A stretch of DNA of 42,624 nt from Myxococcales bacterium (GTDB lineage Bacteria; Myxococcota_A; Polyangia; Polyangiales; Polyangiaceae): assembly GCA_016704525.1 (NCBI GenBank), contig JADIZX010000009.1:1-42624 (forward strand). Reading direction: 5' to 3'. A model generated the notes under the pieces. It did not search any database. It saw only the letters and a program-made list of their open reading frames with translations, and was not told the origin of the DNA. Made by a program: the position numbers and the translations under genes. This document shows, in pieces, positions 4,515-42,071 of the stretch (position 1 is the first letter of the stretch; the number at the start of each line of letters is the position of its first letter).

Positions 4515-4540
<26 letters not shown>
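4150..4540 (-). CDS. C-terminal domain (about 130 aa) of a protein whose upstream part is replaced by the G/C-only tract
   Basis: Well-behaved coding sequence (FTVTGPVLVSG...GSYLIGAGTYESKSFDAGAFDISLSVSSGGTGDWGGQVVLQ, beta-rich) ends at a stop at 4150. Upstream of about 4540 the frame continues into sequence that codes only Gly/Pro/Ala/Arg. The true N-terminus is unknown. Confidence 0.35.
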
Positions 4541-5849
<1,309 letters not shown>

Positions 5850-5854
<5 letters not shown>

Positions 5855-7376
5855 TCTCGGCGGCGCGGAGGCGGGCGAGCATGACCGCGGCGGGCTCGTC
5901 GGTGGGGTCCTGGGGGACGAGCTCGCCGCGGAAGGCCTTGGCGAGGAGGGGAGCCCTTCGAGGCTCCGGCGAGGGCCTCGTAGAGTTCGGCGCTCGTCAA
6001 CTCCTGTACCGGGATTGCCGCGAGGGCACGCCGCCTCAGTCGGTCGCGGAGGACGGTCTGTTCACCGGCCGGCGTGAGCGGCATGGGGAAGCGCCCGCAT
6101 GGCTCCGATGTTGACATGTGGTGCTGCGGACAACCACACTTGAGCATCTAGGAACCGCCGCGCTCGCCCATGCGATGCCCTAGTTGAACGCCATCACATG
6201 CGGATCGACGAACGACACGACCTGGTGGGCGACGCGCAAGGATCGCGCGCAGATAACGGGGGGGGGGCCGGGGGGGGGGGGGCGGTCGGCTAACGATCGG
6301 GGATGGCACATGCCGTGCCGAGGCGCTCGCCTCCGCGAACGACGAGATGTCCCGGGGGCCAGGCGGACTTCGCCAATTCCGCATGGACGTCGGGCGGATG
6401 CAGCGAAGCCCAGAAGGACTCGTAGCGATTCGCCCGGACGGTTCTGGACCGAAGAACGGGAACGCCCTCCGCCACGTAGCCGGGCTCCATCGGGCAGACG
6501 TGCCCGACAGTGATGTCCGGTGAGCGAAGGTCCTCAGCCGATGCCCAACACCACCCCTCCGGCAACTCCGGCAACCCCGTCGCATCGACCGGCTCGGGCT
6601 CCTTGTACTTCCCCTTCCACGCGTCATCCCGCGGGGCCTTCCCCTTGGCGGTCATCTTGGCGAGCTCGGCCTCTTCCCACTTCTTCCGGCGCTCCACGCG
6701 GATGCGCTTCAAGAGCTCGCTCGCGGGCTCCACGTCTCTGTTCTTCGCGCGCCAGTCCTTCGTGAGGTCCCCGCGAAAGGCCGCCGCGAGGATCGACTGG
6801 CGGAGCTTCTCGAGCAGCGGCGGCACGGCGTCGAGCGCCGCGCGGGCGCGACGGGAGCGGGCTTGGAGGGATTCGAGCTTGGCGACGATGCGGCGTTGTT
6901 CGTTGAGGGGGGGACCGGCAAGTCCATTTCCGCAAAGCGCCCGCCCCGAGGTGGCGCGATGTTCGTCGTAATCTGCGCCAACGGAACGAACGCGCCGCTC
7001 TTCAACCAGTTTCGGAATACGCCGAGCGCAAAGGTGGGCTCGACCATCGGGGAGGCCTGAAAGCGGACCAGCGAATTGCTGAAGCAGGCCCCTGGCAGCT
7101 CACCGCGAGACATCGCCGGGCGACCCACCTCTTCGCGTCTGTCCCTCGTTCAGAAGGATGTCCCCCGGGCTGCGCAAGTAGCGCCCACTCCACGCGGCTC
7201 GAAGTGCATCTGCATGACGTCGCTGATGCCGATGCGATCGTTACGTTCGCGACTCGCAGGTACGGGAGCATATTCGGCCCCCGGTGCACGTCGGGAGAGC
7301 GCTGGCGGCCAAGCTGGACCTTGCCCGCCTCGCGAACTTTGACTTGGCACCATCCGCTCGGAAGCTCCTTCGTCAC
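5850..7376 (-). pseudogene. hsdS: Type I restriction-modification specificity subunit HsdS, disrupted by at least 3-4 frameshifts
   Basis: The start overlaps the hsdM stop (ATGA at 7373-7376). TRD1 begins MTKELPSGWCQVKVREAGKVQ. The central conserved repeat (LNEQRRIVAKLESL...PPLLEKLRQSILAAAFRGDL...EPASELLKRIRVER) lies in another frame. TRD2 begins LPELPEGWCWASAEDL. The C-terminal conserved repeat (LLAKAFRGELVPQDPTDEPAAVMLARLRAAE, 5870-5960) is in a third frame. The frame breaks coincide with G7 (6907-6913) and G10CCG14 (6263-6290) tracts. Confidence 0.75.
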
Positions 7377-8809
7377 GCCCCCAGCTCCTCTTGAAGCGCC
7401 GCCATCTCCTCCAGCGCCACCTGCAGCTGCGCAACAATCTCCGCGGCGATCTCCTCCGGCTCCGGGAGATCCGCGTGGTCGGTCACGCTCTCATCCCGCA
7501 GCCACGAGATATCCAGGTTCTCCCCCCGCTTCGCGATCTCCTCCCGCGTGAACTTCCGGAACCGCCCCGTCTCGCCCTGATCCTTCCGCTTGCTCTTCCC
7601 CAGCGGATCCGCCCCGTAGGCCTTCTCGAACTCCGCGAAGTGCGCGCGCGTGAACGGCGTGCGCTTGCCGAACGAGGGCATGTTGGTGCGCAGGTCGTAG
7701 AACCACACGGCCTTGGTGTTGCCCTTGTCCTGCTTCTTCTCCCCCCGCGTGAAGAAGAGCACGTTGGTCTTCACGCCCTGCGCGTAGAAGATGCCCGTGG
7801 GCAGTCGCAGGATGGTGTGCAAGTCGCACTTGTCCATCAGGTCAGCGCGCACCTGCTTGCCCACGCCCTCCTCGAAGAGCACGTTGTCCGGGAGCACCAC
7901 CGCCGCGCGCCCGCCGGGCACGAGGCCTCGGTAGATGTGCTGGAGGAACACGAGTTGCTTGTTGCTCGTGGGGTACGTGAGGTCGTCGCGCGTGGGGGCG
8001 CCGCCGCCCTTCTTGGTGCCGAAGGGGGGATTCGTGAGGATCACGTTCGCCTTCGGCAGGTTGGCGCCCGAGGGGCCGAGCGTGTCGCCGAGCACGAGGT
8101 CGCCCTCGATGTCGTGGAGCATGGCGTTCATGAGCGCCAGGCGCTGCACGTCGGCCACGAGCTCCATCCCCTGGAAGGCCTCGCGTCGCTGGAAGTTCTG
8201 CTTGGCCACGGGCAAGTCGTGGAGATCGTCGGTGTTCGCCTTCACGTACCTGTCGGCGTTGATGAGGAATCCCCCGGTGCCGATCGCGGGATCTTGGATG
8301 ATTTCGCCCGGCTGGGGCTTCACGAGGGCGACCATGCTCTCGATGAGCGCGCGCGGCGTGAAGTATTGCCCCGCGCCGCTCTTGGTCTCCTCCGCGTTCT
8401 TCTCGAGCAGGCCCTCGTAGAGGTCCCCGAGCCCCTCGGACTTGGCGCTGTACCAGTCGAGCGCGTCGATCGCCTCGACCACCGTGCGCAGGTTCCGCGG
8501 CTGCCGGAACGAGGTGCCCGCGTTGGCGAAGATCGCCTGCACGCGCCCCGAGCCTTTGCCGCCGAGATCGATGAGGAGCTTCTTGTAGAAGTCGAGCAGC
8601 TCCACGCCCTCTTTGTTGACGAGATCGCCCCAGCGATAGCCCTTGGGGAGCTGGTCCTCGGTGCCTGTCTCCTTGGTCATCTTGAGGAAGAGGAGATAGG
8701 TGAGCTCGGTCACGTACTGGAGATACGTGATGCCGTCGTCACGGAGGACGTGGCAGAGGTTCCAGAGCTTCTGGACGATGTCGTTCGTGGTCGGCGCGGC
8801 GGGTGGCAT
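7373..8809 (-). CDS. hsdM: Type I restriction-modification DNA methyltransferase subunit HsdM (N6-adenine)
   Basis: HsdM N-terminal domain (NDIVQKLWNLCHVLRDDGITYLQYVTELTYLLFLK). SAM-binding motif (DPAIGTGGFL). Catalytic NPPF (VILTNPPFG). Internal ATG at 8809 chosen; the 5' extension of the ORF looks Arg-rich and non-coding. Confidence 0.9.
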   Translation of the reverse strand: MPPAAPTTNDIVQKLWNLCHVLRDDGITYLQYVTELTYLLFLKMTKETGTEDQLPKGYRWGDLVNKEGVELLDFYKKLLIDLGGKGSGRVQAIFANAGTSFRQPRNLRTVVEAIDALDWYSAKSEGLGDLYEGLLEKNAEETKSGAGQYFTPRALIESMVALVKPQPGEIIQDPAIGTGGFLINADRYVKANTDDLHDLPVAKQNFQRREAFQGMELVADVQRLALMNAMLHDIEGDLVLGDTLGPSGANLPKANVILTNPPFGTKKGGGAPTRDDLTYPTSNKQLVFLQHIYRGLVPGGRAAVVLPDNVLFEEGVGKQVRADLMDKCDLHTILRLPTGIFYAQGVKTNVLFFTRGEKKQDKGNTKAVWFYDLRTNMPSFGKRTPFTRAHFAEFEKAYGADPLGKSKRKDQGETGRFRKFTREEIAKRGENLDISWLRDESVTDHADLPEPEEIAAEIVAQLQVALEEMAALQEELGA

Positions 8810-9214: not shown

Positions 9215-9395
9215 TGAGCGCCCGCGACGCTCGCGGCCCTCACCCCCTCGCGCAGCGGCACGAGACCCACGTGCCCCTCTCCCACAAGGGGAGAGGGGCC
9301 CTTTCCGGAGCAGCTCGTGTGGCCCCTCTCCCCTGGTGGGAGAGGGGCACAAGTCGCCCGCGCCGCTCACGGGCGGGGTGAGGGCTCGCGGGCGT
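9215..9395. repeat. single copy of the MITE-like palindromic element: terminal inverted repeats gggccctcaccccctcgcg / cgcgggcggggtgagggc with two internal hairpins
   Basis: cccctctcccacaaggggagagggg and cccctctcccctggtgggagagggg are perfect hairpins. The flanking ends are inverted complements of each other. Homologous to the units at 11455-12425. Confidence 0.75.
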
Positions 9396-9531
9396 GGTGG
9401 GTGGGTCGCCCTTGTCTTCCGGGCTCGACGCTGAGCTGACGGCCCTTGGCGGCGGCGAACACCGGGCGCCCCGCGCGCCCAGATCGCTCGAGCGCACGGC
9501 AGGTCGGAGCAGGACGTGCTATTTTTCGAGA

Positions 9532-9777
9532 ATGGACAACGGGCCCGAGGCCCGCGCCGCGCGGCGCCGGGCGACCTGGAACTGGGAATGCCGAGTCGCG
9601 AAGACCTTCGCGGAGCACGAGCAGGACGGCCTCGATTTTTGGGCGGATGCGCCAAGCTCGGCGAAGCTCGACGCCATGTGGGACCTCATCGTCGAGGCTT
9701 GGTTGCTCGGAGGAAAGCGTGGACCTGCACCCCGATTTCAGGGATCTGTTGTCGCAATTCGCCGCTTCGAGCGTTGA
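9532..9777 (+). CDS. small hypothetical protein (82 aa), 5' partner of the nucleotidyltransferase gene
   Basis: ATG at 9532 follows an unusually AT-rich stretch (ctatttttcgagaATG). MDNGPEARAARRRATWNWECRVAKTFAEHEQDGLDFWADAPSSAKLDAMWDLIVEAWLLGG... It overlaps the next gene's start by 59 nt. The start is uncertain, since the ORF is open from 9394. Confidence 0.35.
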   Translation: MDNGPEARAARRRATWNWECRVAKTFAEHEQDGLDFWADAPSSAKLDAMWDLIVEAWLLGGKRGPAPRFQGSVVAIRRFER

Positions 9778-10141
9778 CTACTTGATGATCGGTGGCTGGG
9801 CGGTGAGCTTCCACAGCGAGCCGCGCTATACTAAAGATCTCGATCTGCTCTTGGTCGGGAGTGACGACAATCTCGCGAGAGCGGCGGAGGCCCTCGGCGC
9901 CTTCGGGGCGCCACGTTCGGTCATCGACCTGCTGCTCGCGCTCGGGCCGGAGGAGTTCAGCTCACTCGTCGCCGTCGCAGGCCAGACGCTCGAACGCGTC
10001 CCCGCGGCTCACGCGAGTCCATCGAGGATCCCTCGCGACCTCCGCAAGCGCCGCGCGGTCCTCGTCGCCAAGCGCGGGCCCCTCCTCCGCGGACGCGAAC
10101 GCGAGGGAGACGGCCTTCTTTGCGGTGGGAGCCATGACTGA
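9719..10141 (+). CDS. minimal nucleotidyltransferase-fold (MNT/AbiEii-like) protein
   Basis: GTG at 9719 with SD ggagga 4-5 nt upstream. The motif YLMIGGWAVSFHSEPRYTKDLDLLLVG matches the GG-x(9-13)-D-h-D-h signature of Pol-beta-superfamily minimal NTases. Preceded by FRDLLSQFAASSVDY. 140 aa. Confidence 0.55.
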   Translation: MDLHPDFRDLLSQFAASSVDYLMIGGWAVSFHSEPRYTKDLDLLLVGSDDNLARAAEALGAFGAPRSVIDLLLALGPEEFSSLVAVAGQTLERVPAAHASPSRIPRDLRKRRAVLVAKRGPLLRGREREGDGLLCGGSHD

Positions 10142-10294
10142 GGAGTAGCGCGTCAGGGCGCGCCCGTCACCCACGCCCCGCGACACGTCCGAGAGGCAGC
10201 TCTGACGCCGTCGGTGAGCTGCGTGCCGCGGAGGCGCGCCCGTCACGGACCGCTCGGGTTGCTCGGTCACGGCGCCGGAGGTATCGTGCTCCGC

Positions 10295-11398
10295 ATGAGC
10301 GCGGGGTCTCCGTTGGGGTGTGCGCTACGCGAGCAGCGTGACGCCCTCGGCTGTTCAGCCGAGCGACTCGCCGCGCTCTCCGAGCTGCCCGTCGACAGAG
10401 TGCTCGCCCTCGAGCAAGGCGCGCAGGCGACGACCCGTGAAATCGCGAAGCTGGCGTCAGCCCTCGCCGTGGATCCCGCCGCGCTGTGGCGAGGCGAGGT
10501 CAGCCTGCCTCGAACGACCGCGCGATTCCGTGCGCCGAGCGGCGTCGCGTCCCTCGCGGAGGGCGACGCGCGGCTGCTCGCGCGGGCCGCAGAGGCGGGG
10601 CGCGTCCTCGCGCATCTGCGCTCGCTGCGCGGCGAGGAGGCGGCGTCCGTCGTGGCCCGGAGGAGGGTGTCCGGCGTCGCCGGGTGGCCCGAGCCCTGGG
10701 ACCAGGGCTACCGGCTTGGCGCGAGGCTGCGAGCCGACCTCGGGCCCGGCAAGGCGCCAATTCCTTCGGTGCAGCGCCTTCTCGAGGAGCACGGCGTGCA
10801 CGTCGCCTGGAGCGCGTTCGAGAGCGGCGACGTGATCGCGGCCAGTCTCTACGAGCCCGGCGCGGCGCCCGTCATCCTGCTCAATACGAGGTCGCCGAGG
10901 GCGAGGGCGAGGCTCTCACGCCGAGCTGTCCTGGCTCATGAGCTCTGCCATCTCGTGGTCGACGGCGGCGAGACGGACCTGCTCACGCTCGTCTCCCGCG
11001 GCGTCGACGCGACCGAGGTCGAGCAACGGGCGAACGGCTTTGCCCCTAGCTTCATCGTGCCCGGAGGGTGGATATCGCCCCACACCACCGACGTCCGACA
11101 GCTCGCTCTCGACGTCGCCACGGAGTGGGGGCTGAGCTTCGAGGGCGCTCTCTGGCACTTGAAGAATGCGCAGCACATCGGGGCGAGGGATGTCGAAGAG
11201 GAGCTGCGGCGGGAGGCCGTCGTCATTCCAGAGGGTGCGTTCGAGGGCGACATCGAGCGCCGAGAGCCGGCGCATCTCCGTCTGGACGTGACGATCGGTC
11301 CCCTCGCATACGGGGCGCTCTCCGACGTGACACTCGGCGCCTTCGAGGCCGACATGATCTCCCGAGGTCGCGCCGTCGAGATCCTCGCGCTCGCATGA
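10295..11398 (+). CDS. XRE-family HTH fused to an ImmA/IrrE-family zinc metallopeptidase (COG2856/DUF955-type)
   Basis: N-terminal HTH (LREQRDALGCSAERLAALSELPVDRVLALEQG). HEXXH zinc motif (VLAHELCHLVVDG). Internal ATG at 10295 chosen; the ORF is open from 10214. Confidence 0.7.
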   Translation: MSAGSPLGCALREQRDALGCSAERLAALSELPVDRVLALEQGAQATTREIAKLASALAVDPAALWRGEVSLPRTTARFRAPSGVASLAEGDARLLARAAEAGRVLAHLRSLRGEEAASVVARRRVSGVAGWPEPWDQGYRLGARLRADLGPGKAPIPSVQRLLEEHGVHVAWSAFESGDVIAASLYEPGAAPVILLNTRSPRARARLSRRAVLAHELCHLVVDGGETDLLTLVSRGVDATEVEQRANGFAPSFIVPGGWISPHTTDVRQLALDVATEWGLSFEGALWHLKNAQHIGARDVEEELRREAVVIPEGAFEGDIERREPAHLRLDVTIGPLAYGALSDVTLGAFEADMISRGRAVEILALA

Positions 11399-11454: not shown

Positions 11455-12425
11455 CACGCGGGCCCTCACCCCCTCGCGAATCGGCACGAGCCCCACGTGC
11501 CCCTCTCCCACAAGGGGAGAGGGGCCCCTTTCCCGAGCAACTCGTGTGGCCCCTCTCCCCTGGTGGGAGAGGGGCACGAGTCGGCCGCGACGCTCGCGGG
11601 CGGGGTGAGGGCTCACGGGCGGGGTGAGGGCTCACGGGCGGGCAGAGGGCTCGCGCGCGGGCAGAGGGCTCGCGGGGCGGCTCACGTCGGGCGCGACTCT
11701 CGCGGGCCCTCACCCCCTCGCGAATCGGCACGAGCCCCACGTGCCCCTCTCCCACAAGGGGAGAGGGGCCCCTTTCCCGAGCAACTCGTGTGGCCCCTCT
11801 CCCCTGGTGGGAGAGGGGCACGAGTCGGCCGCGACGCTCGCGGGCGGGGTGAGGGCTCGCGGGCGGGGGTGAGGGCTCGCGGGCGGGCAGAAGGCTCGCG
11901 GGCGGGCAGAGGGCTCGCGGGGCGGCTCACGTCGGGCGCGACTCTCGCGGGCCCTCACCCCCCCTCGCGAATCGGCACGAGCCCCGTGCCCCTCTCCCAC
12001 AAGGGGAGGGGCCCCTTTCCCGAGCAACTCGTGTGGCCCCTCTCCCCTGGTGGGAGAGGGGCACGAGTCGGCCGCGACGCTCGCGGGCGGGGTGAGGGCT
12101 CGCGGGCGGGGTGAGGGCTCGCGGGCGGGCAGAAGGCTCGCGCGCGGGCAGAGGGCTCGCGGGGCGGCTCACGTCGGGCGCGACTCTCGCGGGCCCTCAC
12201 CCCCTCGCGAATCGGCACGAGCCCCACGTGCCCCTCTCCCACAAGGGGAGAGGGCCCCTTTCCCGAGCAACTCGCGTGGCCCCTCTCCCCTGGTGGGAGA
12301 GGGGCACGAGTCGGCCGCGACGCTCGCGGGCGGGGTGAGGGCTCGCGGCCGGGGTGAGGGCTCGCGGCCGGCTTGAGGGCTCACGGGCGGCGTGAAGGCT
12401 CACGGGCGGGGTGAGGGCTCACGGC
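11455..12425. repeat. array of four tandem units (period about 243 bp) of the MITE-like palindromic element
   Basis: Units begin at about 11461, 11704, 11950 and 12190. Each has the left TIR, hairpin 1 (cccctctcccacaaggggagagggg), hairpin 2 (cccctctcccctggtgggagagggg), the right TIR, and variable gggcgggcagagggctcgcg sub-repeats. Units are contiguous with no unique spacers. Confidence 0.85.
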
Positions 12426-12759
12426 CGGCCAGCCACTCCCGAAAGCGCTCGAGCACCGCTTCCACGTCTTCCTCCACGTCGGCGGCCGTGACTCGCCAAA
12501 CACGCAGCCCGGAGGCCTCGAGAGCGCTCTGTCGGTCACGGTCGGCCTCGACCCGATCGTCGTGGATGGGCCCGTCGACCTCGACCACGACTCGGAGCTC
12601 GGAGCAGTAGAAGTCGACGACGAACCTGCCCATCGGCTGCTGCCTCCTCCACTTCGTCCCGGCGAACCGCCCGAGTCGCAGCGCCTCCCAGAGGACCGTC
12701 TCCGATCGCGTCTGAGTCCTCCGCAGCCCCCGGGCTCGCTCCGTCATTCTCCGCGCCAT
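12400..12759 (-). CDS. DUF559 (Vsr-like) endonuclease-domain protein
   Basis: TQTRSETVLWEALRLGRFAGTKWRRQQPMGRFVVDFYCSELRVVVEVDGPIHD...SGLRVWRV matches the DUF559/very-short-patch-repair-like fold. It lies 28 bp downstream of hsdR on the same strand. Its last about 8 codons run into the repeat array, so the true stop is uncertain. Confidence 0.7.
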   Translation of the reverse strand: MARRMTERARGLRRTQTRSETVLWEALRLGRFAGTKWRRQQPMGRFVVDFYCSELRVVVEVDGPIHDDRVEADRDRQSALEASGLRVWRVTAADVEEDVEAVLERFREWLAGREPSPRP

Positions 12760-12786: not shown

Positions 12787-15700
12787 CTATCCCACGTCCC
12801 TCCACACCTCTTCCGCCAGCTCACCCAGCAACATCTCGAGCTTCCCGTCGAACACCTTGTTCAGCCGCGCGAAGCCGCCGTCGGTCTTGAACTGTCCCGC
12901 ATCCAGCGAGGCCTTGTCCACCACGGTCTCGAGCTTCACCTGCTTGGCGATGCGGTCGAGCCACTTGGCCTGGGGCTCGGTGAGCTTGTGGGCCTTCCGG
13001 AGCCGCGCCACCGCGCGATCCACGCGCTCGCCGTAGGGCACGAGCGGTGAGCCGAGCGCGGCCTGGCGGATGTAGCCGACGATGGTCGCGGCGACGTCCT
13101 CGTTCTTCTGCTCTTTCCATGCGGTCTGCACCGACTTTTCGCCGTAGCCCTCCTCGTCGAGCGCGAGCTTGAGCGCCTTCAGGTCCGCGCGCGTGAGATC
13201 GCGCGGGCGCTGGACCACGACCAGCAGCGCGGGGAGCTTGTTCATGTGGCGCGTCACGAAGTCGCGGAACGACTCGAGGTAGTCGGCGGGCGGGCGGCTC
13301 CCGTGCTTGCCATAGCCGCGCGTCACCTCGCGGAGGCCGTCGGCGTGCTCGGACACGAGCACCTTGTACTCGCCGCCGCCCACGGTGCGGTCGAGGAACG
13401 GCGCGAGCGAGGGGTGGGCCCGCAGGTAGGCGGCCGCGTCGAGCACCGTGCCGTGCTTGAGGAGCTGCGTGAGCTCGCGGAGGTCCATGCCCGCCGCGCC
13501 CTGGAAGGGCTCCTGCGCGTCTCCCTGGAGCGCCCGCTTCTTGCGCTGGAGCTTGGCGAGGAGCTCCTCGAGCGACAGGCGCCGGTGCTCGTCGTTCGTG
13601 CCCTCGAGGATCTCCTTCGTGAGCTGCTCAAAGGTCACCTTCGGGTTGACCACGACCGGCTTCATGTCGGTCACGCTCTCGAGCGCGGCGTAGAGATCCA
13701 CGGCGTCGAAGACGCGAAAGCGCTCCTTGCCTATCTCGGGGCACAGGCGCGTCGCGCGGCCCATCATCTGCTCGTAGAGGATGCGGCTCCGCACGCGGCG
13801 CAGAAAGACCAGGTTGGCGATCTTCGGCACGTCGATGCCCGTCGTGAGGAGATCGACCGTGACGGCGATGTTCGGGTGGCGCTCGTTCCGGTAGCGCCGA
13901 ATGGCCTCGAGCGGCCGGTCGGTGGTCCCCGTGATCTTGAGCACCGCGTCGTCGTCGACCTCGCCGAACTTCTTCGTGAGCTCCTCCTTCAGCAGCGTGA
14001 CGACCATGTCGGCGTGCTCGTCGGTGGCGCAGAAGATGAGGGTCTTCTCGTCCTCGCTCGGATCGATGTGGTTCTGGACGAGCTCGGCGAGCACGACGCG
14101 GTTCCAGCCCTCGGTGATGACGCGGCGGTTGAAGGCGTCGATCTCGAAGTCGACGTTCTCGGCGAGCTTCTCCTTCTGGAGCGTCTGCGCCTTGCGATCG
14201 AGGACGAGCACCTCCTCGTGGGCCTCGTAGTGAATGCCGTCGTGCGCCTGGTGCGTGACGATGCGAATGGGCGGCTCGTGGTCCACCAGGAAGCCGTCCA
14301 CGACGGCCTCGCGGTAGCCGTAGGAGTACACCGGGGCGCCGAAAATTTCGCTCGTGTGGAGCGCGGGCGTGGCGGTGAGGCCGATCTTGGTGGCGTCGAA
14401 GTGGTCGAGCACGCGCCGGTACTTCGAGATGTAGTCGTCCTCGTCGCGAAACTCGAGATCACGCTCGGAGAGCTCGCGGTCGAGCAAATACCCTCGATGG
14501 CACTCGTCCACCACGACGCAGTCGTACTGGTCGACGGGCGGGATGTTGGCCTCGCTCGCGTCGTCGTGAGGGCCGAGCACGCGCTTCACCATGGCCTGGA
14601 TCGTGGCCAGCTGGAGCTTGGTCTCGCGGTCCGGCTTGAGATCGCCGAGCTCCTTCACGTCGAAGATGTCGGTGAAGGTCTGCAGGTTCTCGAGGCGGAG
14701 ATCCTTGAGCGCGTCCCCGGTCTGGCGGCCGAGCGCGCTCCGGTCGACGAGGAAGAGCACGCGCCGGAAGCGCTTCGTCTTGAGGAGGCGGTACACGAGG
14801 CCGATGCACGTGCGCGTCTTGCCGGTGCCGGTCGCCATGGCGAGCAAGAGCTCGCGCTGCCCCTTCTCGAGGCCCGCCTCGACCGCGAGGATGGCCTTCC
14901 GCTGGTACTCGCGGTCGATGTACGGCATCGGCTCGACCTGGAGCTTCGCGTGCGCTTCGTCCACGTCCTGGCGCAGGAGGTCGACGAGCCCGTCGGGCGT
15001 GTACCAGCCCTCGAGGGCGGTCGGATGGTTCTGGGGCCGGCGCGCGTCGAGAAACCAGATGCCGCTCTTCGCGTGGAACTGCCGGAGGTACGCGCGGCCG
15101 TTCGTGGCGAAGAGGAACGGCACTTTGTGCGCTCCCCACGGGCTCCCCTCGGGGAGAGACTCGCCGCCCTTCACGAGGTATCCCGCGGAGTACCGCTTGG
15201 CCTGGGGAATGACCCCCGACACGTCCTTGTGCTTGCGCTTCGCCTCCACCACGCCGACCACCTGGAGGCCGGCGAAGAGCACGTAGTCGGCCCAGCCTTC
15301 CCGGCCGTCCACGCGCGTGGGCCACTCGGCGATCGCGAGGTTCTTGCCCTTCGTGGGGCGCGCCCCTCGCTCGAACGTGAGCCCTTGGGAGTCGGCCTCC
15401 CAGCCCGCCGCGCGGAGCTGATGGTCAATCAGCCGCCGCGTGGCGGCTTCGTCAAGGTGGATGTCCTCGCTCGCCTTGTGGGCGACGCCGATGCTCTGCG
15501 CGAGCGCGGCCGGAGGCATCGCGACCGCGGCGGCCTGGAGGGCCGCGAGCTCCTCCGCGAGCTTCTTGTTCTGGGCGAGGAGCGCGGCGCTCTTCTTCGC
15601 CTCGGCCTCGAGCTGCTCCTTCGCGAGCTCCTCCCAGATCGCCGCGTCGTCACGCGCCTTCTGCGCGCGCTGCTCGGCAGTCGTGCGCCCCGCGAGCTCG

Positions 15701-16259
15701 GCCTCGGCGGCCTCGCGCGCCTCCTCGATCGCCCGCTGGGCGGCCTCGAGATCCTTCGTGCGCGCGCGGACGTCGTCGCGCAGGCGCTGGAGCTCGTCCT
15801 CGAGGGCGGCCTCGGGGCGCTGCGGGGGAGAGGGCGGCACGAACGGGCCCGGATCGAACTTGCGGTTGTTGCCGAAGCTCCGCTGAAACCAGACCCCCAG
15901 CTCGCGCGCCATGCGGAGCTGGTGGAGCGCCTCGCCGTGGTCTCCCCGGCCCTCGTGCACCGCGGCGTTGCCGACCCGCCGGAGATCGTGAAAGAGCGAG
16001 CGCTGCGTGGCGCCGATGACGTTCCGCTCCCAGAGCCGATCGATGAGCTGCTGCTGCCCGTCCTGAGGCCCCACGAAGAGCCCGACCTTGGCCGCCGCGC
16101 GCTGCGCGAGCTGCTCACCGAACGCGCGGAGCTTGAAGAGCGTGACCGAGGGATCCCCCGCGAAGTGCTCCTCGGCCTGCGTCGCGAGCGCCACGAGCCG
16201 CGCGTCGTGGTGCGCGAGATAGGCGAAGTTGGGTGACGGAGCGGGCGGCGCGGGAGGCA
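12787..16259 (-). CDS. hsdR: Type I restriction enzyme R subunit HsdR (1157 aa), with an N-terminal DUF4145-like domain and a long coiled-coil
   Basis: ATG at 16259 (MPPAPPAPSPNFAYLAHHDARLV...) chosen; the 1383-aa ORF upstream of it is Arg/Gly junk. Helicase motif I (LLAMATGTGKTRT), motif II (VVVDECHRG), motif III (GLTATP) and HsdR-type C-terminal region are present. Coiled-coil EDELQRLRDDVRARTKDLEAAQRAIEEAREAAE... Confidence 0.9.
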
Positions 16260-16553
16260 TGGGCGGAACGTGGAGGATACACGGATCGAGGGGTGGGTTC
16301 CCAGGGGATCGGGCCAGATCTCCGACTCCTTCCACGGAGCGAGCGTCATCGACGAGTCGACCGCGCCGATGCTTCGCGCGGCTCGAGGGACGCCGGCACG
16401 CGCGGGCGCGGATCGACGTGCGCACCGGCGTTGCCAAGCCAGCGCCAACCGGCGACGCTCGGCGTCGCGCTGCCCGACTGGGATCACCGCTACGAGGCGG
16501 CATCCGTTGAGCTCGTCGTCTCTGCGGACGCGAGGAACGTGACGCGGACATCT

Positions 16554-17624
16554 TCACCCCGACAGGACATCCTCCAGCGTCGCGGCGGTGAGCACCCGCT
16601 CCGCCCAGGTGTCGAGCGTGGCAGCGTCCGCGGCGTCGAGTCGCGCGTTCGCACCCTCGGGGAGCGCACCGAACCGGAGAGCGAGCTGCTTGCGCAACAT
16701 GACGCGTCGACCTTGGACCTCTCCGACGATGATTCCTCGTGCCTCTCCCTTTTGCATCAACTCTTCGCCTGCGGTCATGAGCGTCTCCTTCAAGCGTTCG
16801 TCCGGGAGCGCCCCACGAAGCTGTTCCAGTACGATCCGCGACTCCGCGGGGTGGACCATCATCACATAGCGCAGGACGGTGTCCAGCGCCGCCCTCCCGT
16901 GTGGCGCCATCATGATCTCGAGCGCCACGTCCGCCCACGCGCCCAGATGGCGCACGAGCTCCTCAGGGTCGCGCGCGCGGCGGAAGCAATAGAGCACCAG
17001 CCGGCCGAGCGCGGACATCGCGCGCGCGCGAAGCGCTTCGTCGGTCTCGGTGACGAGCTCGTCGAGCACGAAGCGATGGCGCAGCACGTGCGCGCCCGCG
17101 GCCCGGAGGGTCGCTTCGTCGAGATCGTACAGCTCCTCGAGCGAACGCGCGGCCGTCCAGCCAGCGTCGCCGTGGTGAAGGACGACAGGGACGAGCGCGG
17201 GGAGCACCGTCGCGCCGGGGTTCTCCTTCAGCCACGACTCCCAGATGCGAACGGCATAGACCACCAGCCGAAAGGGCATGAGCGGGTGCGGGGTGCTCTG
17301 ATGCTCGTAAAGGAGATAGAGACGGGCCTCGCGACCCGAGAGCGACACGCGGAACAGAAGATCGGTGTGGCGGCTCTTGAGCTCGGCGTCCACGAACGAG
17401 CCAGGGACGGCCTCGAGCGTGTCCCAGGAGAACCGCGCCGCGAGCCCCTTCGGGAGCGCCGTGCGGAGCGCTCCCTCGGCGTGCCGCGGGTCCGAGAACG
17501 TGGACTTGAAGAGGGCGTCGTGGGGGCTCGGGGGCACGTGCCCAAGATGGCAAAGTCGAGGCCAGCGCGAGCAGGCAGGAATCCTCGGGCGGCGTGGGGG
17601 CGCCGATTGTCCGGGACGGCTCAT
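16554..17624 (-). CDS. Rpn-family recombination-promoting nuclease / putative transposase (PD-(D/E)xK, YhgA-like)
   Basis: HDALFKSTFSDPRHAEGALRTALP...FVDAELKSRHTDLLFRVSLSGREARLYLLYEHQST...FRLVVYAVRIWESW is the hallmark N-terminal nuclease core of the Rpn/transposase_31 family, with a DUF4351-like C-terminus. The start is uncertain: ATG at 17624 leaves an atypical 34-aa leader, and a GTG near 17546 is possible. Confidence 0.7.
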   Translation of the reverse strand: MSRPGQSAPPRRPRIPACSRWPRLCHLGHVPPSPHDALFKSTFSDPRHAEGALRTALPKGLAARFSWDTLEAVPGSFVDAELKSRHTDLLFRVSLSGREARLYLLYEHQSTPHPLMPFRLVVYAVRIWESWLKENPGATVLPALVPVVLHHGDAGWTAARSLEELYDLDEATLRAAGAHVLRHRFVLDELVTETDEALRARAMSALGRLVLYCFRRARDPEELVRHLGAWADVALEIMMAPHGRAALDTVLRYVMMVHPAESRIVLEQLRGALPDERLKETLMTAGEELMQKGEARGIIVGEVQGRRVMLRKQLALRFGALPEGANARLDAADAATLDTWAERVLTAATLEDVLSG

Positions 17625-26867: not shown

Positions 26868-27220
26868 TGCGTGGTTCCTTCCGGTGTTTCGGACCACGCC
26901 ACTATGGGCCTCTCGGTGCCTCGCGTTTAGACAGCGCCAGCTGAACGAATCGTTCCGTTTCTACGCACAATGCGAGAGCACTTGTGCGATGCTGAGCACA
27001 ACTCCGGACTGCGCAAATCCGCCCTTCCGGGGGTTCGCCCGAGCGCGGCGGCACTCGGGATGAAGACCGCGTTGGAGCTTCGGACGACGTTGGCCGCGGG
27101 AGCGGACAAGCCGGAGGGGTGAATCGGCCAGCTTTGTGGCCGAGAGGGGGCGCCCGGGGGGGGGGGGGCAGCCGTTCGCGCAGCGAACTGCGTACCGAGA
27201 GGGAACCTCTCGCAGGAGTG

Positions 27221-40717: not shown

Positions 40718-42071
40718 GTGTCCGACCCCGTGACCACTTCGCGTTCTGCCCGTGAATCCTTGGCTCGTGGCCTCGCCGCGCTCCAGGTCGACCCAAGCAC
40801 TCCGCCCGCCATCCTCGAGATAGCAGAGCCCATCGCGCTCGCCATGGGCTCGCTCCACAAAATCGAGAGCTCGCAAGGGGCAGCGCTCGTGCCCAACGCG
40901 GAGACCGCGCTCGGTCACGTGCGGGCCGCGCTGTCGCAGCTCCAGGCGCAGACCTCCGGCCACCCCTCGGTGCCCAACGCCATGGAGGCGGTCGCGGCGT
41001 CGCTCGGCCTCGTGCACCAGCTCTCGAAGATGGTGACCGGGCCGTCGGTCGCGCCGGCCGGCCGCGCCGGCCGCGCCCGTGCAAGTCGCCCCCGTCGCCC
41101 CCGTCGCCCCCGCCGCCCCCGCCGCCCCCACCGCCCCCGCCGCGGCAGCGGTCCCACGCCTCGGGACCCAGCCGCTCGCTCCGGCGATGGCCCCGCGGCC
41201 CGTGGCGGCCCCGCAGGCCCCGATGGCGCAAGCCCCGATGGCCCCGCAAGCCCCGATGGCCCCGCAAGCCCCGATGGCCCCGCAAGCCCCGATGGCCCCG
41301 CAAGCCCCGACGGCCCCGCAAGCCCCGGCGTTCGCTCACCAGCCCGTGGCTCACCAGCCCGCTCCCCAGCAGGCCCCGCAGTTCGCCCCCCCGCCCGTGG
41401 CTCACCAGCCCGCTCCCCAGCAGGCCCCGCTGCAGGCGCCGCCGCAAGCGTTCGCGCCCCAGCCCATGGCCCAGCAGCCCGCGCCTCCGCAGGCGTTCGC
41501 GCCCCAGCCCGTCGCGGCCCCCCAGTTCGCTCCCGCGCAGCAGCCCGCTCCGCAGTTTGCCGCGCCTCCGCAGCAGCAGCCCACGCTGGCGCAGACCGTG
41601 GCGCTCGGCCAGCCCCAGCCCCAGGGTATGCAGCACACGCTCCCGGTAGCCCCCCAGGCCGCGCCGGACCCGTTCGCGGCGCCCCGCGGCTCCGCTCCCG
41701 CGCCTGCGCCCGCCGCCGCCGGAGGCCCAGGCCGGCCGGTGCCGGTGCTGAACGCCGACCTCGGCGCCCACAGCCCCACGAACTTCTACAAGGGGCTCTC
41801 GGGCAACGACGTCGTCGATCACGGCGGCCTGTTCGTTGCAACCTACATGATCCCGAAGATCGGCAGCCCAGTGCGGCTGCACGTCTCGCTGCCCGGCGGG
41901 TATGAGTTCGACGCGGAGGCGATCGTGCGCTGGGCGCGGGACCAGGCCGGCAGCTCGGAGAGCGCGCTCCCCGGCTTCGGCGCGCAGTTCACGAACATCT
42001 CGCCGGAAGCGCGCCAGCTCATTTACCGCTACGTGCGCAACCGCGAGCCGCTCTTCCACGACGACCTGTAG
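40718..42071 (+). CDS. PilZ-domain protein with a novel N-terminal domain and a Pro/Ala/Gln-rich repetitive linker; apparent frameshift at about 41034-41075
   Basis: GTG at 40718 with SD aggaga 8 nt upstream. The N-domain (about 110 aa) is in frame 2. From about 41079 the sensible frame is frame 0 (APMAPQ x5 encoded by an 18-bp tandem repeat at 41218-41325). It ends in a PilZ domain (GLFVATYMIPKIGSPVRLHVSLPGGYEFDAEAIVRWARD...GFGAQFTNISPEARQLIYRYV). Frame 2 continues as Arg-rich nonsense. Confidence 0.6.

Follow-up and report, generated by a model that had tools for sequence, protein, structure and literature searches.

We analysed a stretch of 42,624 nucleotides (nt) from a Myxococcales bacterium (contig JADIZX010000009.1 of assembly GCA_016704525.1; hereafter, the window), which has an overall G+C content of about 70% and carries on its minus strand a three-gene Type I restriction-modification (R-M) system consisting of hsdR, a 3.7-kb insert, hsdM and hsdS (Table 1). 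The hsdR and hsdM genes are intact, and hsdS, the specificity subunit gene, is broken at about 14 places within 1.5 kb. A preliminary description of this locus had considered two readings of the breaks, a phase-variable specificity subunit and homopolymer indel errors. Comparison with independent assemblies and related genes leads us to conclude that the broken hsdS is very probably the result of local consensus corruption in a nanopore-based metagenome assembly, superimposed on an ordinary gene.

An intact hsdR and hsdM beside an hsdS in three frames

The product of hsdR carries the Pfam domains ResIII, SWI2_SNF2, Helicase_C, EcoEI_R_C and HSDR_N. Within the gene, there are no indels against L087, the corresponding locus of assembly GCA_963852875.1, and the gene is 94% identical, with 2 gaps in 3.6 kb, to that of the related locus L017. 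GCA_963852875.1 also encodes exactly the same HsdM protein as the window, and the hsdM DNA of the two shows no indels. Directly 3' of hsdM, a GTG start codon at 7376 overlaps the hsdM stop codon within the sequence GTGA, a 4-nt overlap, and six-frame translation from this point recovered the parts of HsdS in the order N-terminal piece, target recognition domain (TRD) 1, central conserved region, TRD2 and C-terminal conserved region. The preliminary description had recognized four conserved HsdS pieces lying in different frames, and both translation and alignments confirmed this, with all three frames in use. When the pieces are stitched together, the product matches HsdS proteins of 500-540 amino acids (aa) with E=7e-193 and coverage of up to 99%, and the matching proteins carry the Pfam domain PF01420. 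The layout is also that of an hsdS gene, with two TRDs split by conserved regions, an adjacent hsdM, and hsdR 5.4 kb away. Because the stitched product matches HsdS and its parts are spread over three frames, the identification of hsdS is correct, and the gene is really broken in the deposited sequence. The GenBank protein MBK6463039.1 (IPF92_18840), encoded on a 234-kb contig of a Myxococcales MAG, corresponds exactly to the window open reading frame (ORF) at 6290-6826, including the out-of-frame stretch ESFWASLH, which identifies the window with that deposit. Searches of the whole window with hsdS and its conserved regions (tblastn and blastn) found no extra hsdS copies or fragments besides the gene itself. 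With no second hsdS copy and no recombinase-type shufflon in the window, a local hsdS shufflon or invertible system was rejected.

Lesions in hsdS were counted from frameshift-aware protein-to-DNA alignments, using the related proteins P0002 for TRD1 and P0031 and P0057 for TRD2, together with DNA alignment to L087. A frame plot of G+C content at third codon positions (GC3) proved too coarse for frameshift detection across the window, and direct comparison with other assemblies was used instead. The gene had been described as broken exactly at G homopolymers, and two lesions do lie at G runs of 7 or more (G7 and G10CCG13), but the remaining 12 or so are located elsewhere. The position given earlier for G7 was exact, and this run coincides with a frame change; the longer tract, reported as G10CCG14 at 6263-6290, actually consists of G10 (6258-6267), CC and G13 (6270-6282). 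The 178-aa ORF ends at a TAG at 6290-6292, which is the product of a shift just upstream of this long tract, not inside it. Two other TRD2 lesions, at 6418 and 6401, form a compensating pair that restores the residues PSGLR.

All lesions are confined to the two TRDs; hsdS is clean over its N-terminal 130 nt, over 364 nt in the centre and over the last 106 nt at the C-terminal end, and the neighbouring hsdM (1.4 kb) and hsdR (4.1 kb) are free of lesions. Compared with L087, the central region differs by one or two substitutions, and the sole indel there (6739) is L087's own lesion.

Table 1. Coordinates of the Type I genes, the parts and lesions of hsdS, and the G-rich tracts (positions in the window unless a sister assembly is named)
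Feature	Position	Strand	Remarks
hsdR	12787-16938	-	Intact; maximal ORF of 1383 aa; 1157 aa called in a sister assembly
hsdM	7373-8809	-	Intact; 478 aa; ATG at 8809; Pfam N6_Mtase and HsdM_N
hsdS remnant	7376 down to about 5845	-	Two TRDs and two conserved regions in three frames; about 14 lesions
TRD1	6914-7245	-	Six window-private indels (including the adjoining 6913 deletion) and 19 substitutions in 330 nt
TRD1 and junction lesions	7243 (-4 nt), 7184 (-1), 7134 (-2), 6954 (+1), 6942 (-1), 6913 (-1, at G7)		
G7 (C7 on the coding strand)	6907-6913	+	Within conserved PVPPL codons; one base short of the sister assemblies
Central conserved region	6543-6906	-	Clean, one frame; 99.5% identity to L088, ungapped
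TRD2	5958-6542	-	Allele unlike those of L087 and L088; at least eight lesions
TRD2 lesions	6418, 6401, about 6293, 6258-6282 (block), 6180-6182 (in-frame TAG), 6152, about 6090, about 5958		
G10CCG13 tract	6258-6282	+	Inside TRD2, 420 nt from the G/C-only tract
C-terminal conserved region (LLAKAFRGELVPQDPTDEPAAVMLARLRAAE)	5845-5950	-	Clean
G/C-only tract	4540-5841	.	95-98% G+C; runs up to G47; adjoins hsdS
G13	27156-27168	+	Intergenic; the stop codon of a patatin-family gene lies 53 nt upstream
hsdS in sister assemblies	L087 11434-12970; L088 about 5770-7090		

The damaged sites in independent assemblies

For comparison, we used assemblies identified through exact-protein look-ups, namely, GCA_963852875.1 (loci L081 and L087), GCA_016720545.1 (L088) and Illumina contigs from wastewater (L082-L086), all of which are 98-99.9% identical to the window; L087 and L088 come from two independent assemblies of the same species. 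Across more than 20 kb of sequence away from hsdS, the window and the Illumina contigs differ by no indels over 7.5 kb (L085), none over 4.5 kb (L086) and a single event over 11.6 kb (L082). Given this close agreement, the assembly is generally good, and the damage at hsdS is local. At several of the suspect sites, at least one independent assembly carries normal sequence: L087 and L088 at the G/C-only tract that adjoins hsdS and at G7, L087 across the TRD1 indels, and L083 and L081 at the G13 at 27156. Elsewhere in the window, a Pro/Ala-rich coding region of short repeats (41050-41290) shows indel differences among all assemblies (L081, L082 and L084), representing either real repeat-number variation or assembly noise.

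The accession of the sister metagenome-assembled genome (MAG) JADKKK01, to which L088 belongs, fits the block of an activated-sludge MAG study (PMC8012365), and the window deposit probably stems from the same study, with R9.4.1 nanopore sequencing and polishing. The pipeline of that study took Guppy flip-flop R9.4.1 reads through CANU, Racon, two rounds of Medaka 0.6.5, and a final round of Racon with HiSeq X reads. In the sister MAG (IPQ09), no hsdM was called at L088 4100-6000 although the DNA aligns to the window hsdM at 97%, and this MAG probably has hsdM frameshifts too.

At the junction of TRD1 and the central region, where the coding strand of the window has C7, both sister assemblies have C8 in frame (L087 11904-11911, GTC CCC CCC CTC; L088 6054-6061, CTC CCC CCC CTC), coding for the conserved P-P-L (PVPPL or ALPPL) at the start of the central region. 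Related sites with the PPL motif have a C run of 5 or less in 28 of 31 cases and C8 in the other three; the C8 results from the choice among synonymous codons and is not a conserved repeat. According to PMC9262707, R9.4.1 nanopore metagenome assemblies need short-read polishing against indels in homopolymer regions, and C8 read as C7 would be a typical residual homopolymer error if the link of the deposit to PMC8012365 holds.

The TRD1 of L087 is entirely in a single frame, and therefore the six TRD1 indels are private to the window. L088, which has a different TRD1, is informative for the G7 site only, not for these indels. At the protein level, TRD1 of the window and that of L087 differ at 18 positions, comprising 11 substitutions, five residues lost at frameshifts and two residues in a short out-of-frame stretch, and at 16 of these positions, the L087 residue is the one common to all or most of eight homologues. 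The changes in the window affect family-invariant residues and include D→G, E→G, L→R, Y→S, T→S and F→L, with codons altered mostly from AT to GC (GAC→GGC, GAA→GGA, TAT→TCT, CTC→CGC). Counted by direction, AT→GC and GC→AT substitutions stand at 11:4 in hsdS, 3:8 in hsdM, and 15:0 at the left edge of the G/C-only tract. Because the AT→GC direction is common to both, these G/C-biased substitutions tie the hsdS damage to the same corruption as that of the G/C-only tract.

This tract overlies the hsdS stop codon, a spacer, and the first two thirds of a 310-aa gene. It had been called grossly artefactual from the outset, and this judgement was borne out, given that L087 and L088 have normal sequence of 66% G+C at the corresponding place. 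The flanks of the tract are collinear with L087 and L088, and between them the window has 1,231-1,242 nt, compared to 1,246 nt in L087 (12944-14190) and 1,225 nt in L088 (7091-8315). We rejected the possibility that two contigs had been joined into a chimera, as both flanks are collinear with both sister loci and the spacing matches. A search for synteny of the left flank found no match among 80 related loci, this flank being placed only via L087. When the tract was aligned to L087 and L088 with A and T treated as wildcards, the scores were 392 and 400, compared to 190.8±22.4 for 200 random segments. G and C of the real sequence are each retained in roughly 80% of the aligned positions, and A and T are turned into G or C about equally. 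The alignment signal stems only from the retained G/C positions, with A and T replaced at random. Single recoding rules, that is, A→C with T→G, as in the loss of one Illumina two-colour channel, or A→G with T→C transitions, were rejected since all recodings score about equally. The G/C-only tract is a degraded copy of real sequence, and since no mutational process is known that swaps every A/T over 1.2 kb and leaves the flanks 98% identical, we treat it as a consensus artefact.

The same artefact recurs on a small scale far from hsdS. At the site of the intergenic G13 (27156-27168), the Illumina contig L083, which is 99.7% identical to the window overall, has the ordinary mixed sequence AGTCGTGCTAGCCCTGTCCCGTAGGGGGCGC, and L081 has a third version. 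The G13 stands in for about 31 nt of ordinary L083 sequence and is a small-scale copy of what is seen in the G/C-only tract. Because this run is not a homopolymer in L083, the long G runs of the assembly are places where ordinary sequence has collapsed locally into G/C. Such runs are few: outside the G/C-only tract, the window contains five runs of 7, two of 8, and three of 10 or more, the latter being the G10 and G13 of hsdS and the G13 at 27156. Dinucleotide shuffles of the whole window, with the G/C-only tract included, give an expectation of about 20 G7/C7 matches. The view that the G tracts in hsdS are far above background holds for G10 and G13, which are exceptional, but not for G7.

The proteins closest to the window TRD2 are P0031, P0057, P0075 and P0065. 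Between the residues PD and CA, the TRD2-type homologues P0031 and P0057 have 5-6 ordinary residues (ELVDAN or ELDDAN), compared to about 14 Pro/Ala/Gly codons in the window, where the G10CCG13 tract is located. The TRD2 segment at 6123-6543 has no DNA match in L087, and independent DNA of this allele was not found, with a protein search returning only the window's own fragment P0121 and a degenerate DNA pattern yielding 0 hits in Joint Genome Institute (JGI) metagenomes. From its composition and position, the homologous proteins, and the analogy with the G13 at 27156, we infer that G10CCG13 would be a G/C-collapse artefact of the same origin as the G/C-only tract.

Related hsdS genes and the hsdR-hsdM insert

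In 17 related loci, from Polyangiaceae and others, hsdS follows hsdM, and the longest G/C run in hsdS is 7 or less in all of them. Most of these genes are matched by a single one-frame alignment; L001 is matched in two pieces that lie in different frames, and for a few genes the match is partial. A near-identical central region is joined to different TRDs, namely, TRD1-W and TRD2-A in the window, TRD1-W and TRD2-B in L087, a variant TRD1 and TRD2-B in L088, and yet another TRD1 with TRD2-B, all in one frame, in the JGI fragment P0131; P0031 is a further example. As far as sequence comparison goes, this pattern indicates that TRD alleles reassort among co-occurring wastewater strains.

The hsdS genes of L087 and the IPQ09 MAG contain a few frameshifts, at other positions than in the window. 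The Illumina-derived P0131 is intact across the TRD2 shifts of L087, and because it reads in one frame there, these L087 frameshifts are probably errors too. In another taxon (L089 3001-6000 and L090 2749-5750), hsdS stops after the central region, and the C-terminal conserved piece is located about 2 kb downstream. The gap is occupied by an opposite-strand ORF of 478 aa that has no Pfam hit, and the interruption of hsdS is an insertion, not a repeat.

Between hsdR and hsdM, the plus strand of the window carries a gene combining helix-turn-helix (HTH) and Peptidase_M78 (IrrE-like) domains (10214-11398) and a weak AbiEii-like ORF (9446-10141), which are possibly a defence or toxin-antitoxin-like insert within the R-M operon. 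The same 3.7-kb insert contains a 243-nt unit repeated 3.8 times in tandem (11457-12429), each unit with 19-nt sub-repeats (GCTCGCGGGCGGGCAGAGG). A related copy lies near 9220-9400, and the repeat is also found in L087 and L017. The hsdR-hsdM spacer of L017 is much shorter, about 1.45 kb.

Explanations for the broken gene

Under the explanation we favour, a segment of about 2.7 kb (4540-7245) has very probably been locally mis-assembled or mis-polished. In the worst part, at 4540-5841, the consensus kept most G/C positions and swapped essentially every A/T for G or C, giving rise to the long runs. The damage to hsdS would be a milder form of the same process, with scattered indels of 1-4 nt, conserved residues altered by AT→GC substitutions, a G/C-only block of 25 nt, and the loss of one base from a genuine C8, and the true gene would most likely be an ordinary intact two-TRD hsdS. 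The trigger might have been poor read support, or else the stacking of reads that came from co-occurring strains differing in their TRD alleles. When piled up on one draft, mixed alleles would degrade the consensus in the TRDs but leave that of the conserved regions clean; we suspect such a trigger because every lesion is located in a TRD, the conserved regions are free of them, and the sister assemblies carry different TRDs. The frameshifts at other sites in hsdS of L087 and the IPQ09 MAG, together with the intact P0131, fit this mixed-allele explanation. The window resembles R9.4.1 nanopore metagenome assemblies in being one base short of C8, in having assembly-private frameshifts, and in the clustering of errors where strains differ, and is unlike them in the G/C-only recoding that keeps a G/C skeleton over 1.2 kb. 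The earlier assessment that homopolymer indel errors were at least as likely as phase variation is supported by these observations and can be sharpened to local G/C collapse combined with indel corruption that includes the 1.3-kb tract.

Several points weigh against this explanation. The mixed-allele trigger does not account for the G/C-only tract. Recoding of 1.2 kb into G and C with the G/C skeleton kept is not a known failure mode in the literature, and HiSeq X, the platform of the probable source study, is not known for poly-G artefacts. The corruption follows no simple gradient from the G/C-only tract, given that the C-terminal 110 nt of hsdS touching the tract are clean. The lesions are read as artefacts from the comparison of assemblies, and G10CCG13 would be one only by analogy and by comparison with homologous proteins. 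Finally, the frameshifts at other hsdS sites in two other long-read assemblies could mean real decay of the gene in the species.

Were that the case, hsdS would be a genuine decayed pseudogene, with real frameshifts and substitutions acquired after inactivation and the neighbouring G/C tract as an unrelated artefact, a scenario we consider unlikely. The distribution of the changes is not that of uniform neutral decay, with 0-2 substitutions in the 364 nt of the central conserved region versus six indels and 19 substitutions in the 330 nt of TRD1, and the indel-to-substitution ratio is very high. Substitutions at conserved residues are what would be expected once selection is lost, but their AT→GC direction matches the adjacent artefact. 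Disrupted hsdS genes do exist among relatives (L089 and L090, with the 2-kb insertion), and those of L087 and the IPQ09 MAG are frameshifted at other positions; however, P0131 is in one frame where the TRD2 of L087 is shifted, so that the long-read frameshifts there are probably errors.

Phase-variable Type I hsdS or hsdM genes with simple-sequence repeats (SSRs) are known from the phasevarions of Neisseria, Haemophilus, Helicobacter, Campylobacter and mycoplasmas. In the window, the G tracts would correspondingly act as contingency repeats that, by slipped-strand mispairing, switch hsdS between full-length, half-size and off states. The resemblance to phasevarions consists in a homopolymer inside hsdS, located at the junction of TRD1 and the central region, where truncation would yield a half-size HsdS, and in a run length that differs by one base among assemblies (8 in L087 and L088, 7 in the window); moreover, the runs of 10 and 13 far exceed the background. 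Unlike in phasevarions, the rest of hsdS is not intact: 12 further lesions, including five further frameshifts in TRD1 and at least six further lesions in TRD2, keep the gene broken at any tract length. The truncated HsdS envisaged earlier, composed of TRD1 and the central repeat, is impossible because the five TRD1 frameshifts lie upstream of G7. The tracts are not conserved in relatives either, with no run above 7 in the 17 hsdS genes and C8 at only 3 of 31 motif sites, and where the window has G10CCG13, the TRD2-type homologues lack any Pro/Gly run. Only one long tract (27156-27168) could be compared with an Illumina assembly, in which it is no homopolymer, and the long tracts of the window are best explained as artefacts. 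The length difference of 7 versus 8 is equally expected from nanopore homopolymer error (PMC9262707). The phase-variable specificity subunit proposed in the preliminary description thus finds no support, since the ORF cannot be restored by tract lengths and the tracts are not conserved in relatives, and we regard it as highly improbable.

A narrower variant, in which a genuine C8 at the junction of TRD1 and the central region is slip-prone in this Polyangiaceae lineage and the C7 of the window is a real OFF variant, seems to us just as hard to credit. It would account for one lesion of fourteen, and nothing else supports it. If true, C8 slippage would give a myxobacterium a Type I specificity gene that is phase-variable, in addition to the TRD reassortment among co-occurring wastewater strains, and SSR-driven switching of a Type I specificity subunit would extend phasevarions to Myxococcota.

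Under local consensus corruption, by contrast, the G/C collapses of this MAG and the clusters of indels in the strain-variable parts of hsdS can be mistaken for contingency loci and pseudogenes. Without a check of the reads, long G/C runs should not be trusted as biology in this assembly, and the same may hold for sister MAGs from the same pipeline. Once the corruption is set aside, nothing in the window hsdS departs from an ordinary two-TRD Type I subunit, which it resembles in its domain order, the 4-nt overlap with hsdM, the EcoEI_R_C domain on hsdR, and a central region joined to varied TRDs. The underlying biology is that of an ordinary Type I system in which TRDs are reassorted from strain to strain.

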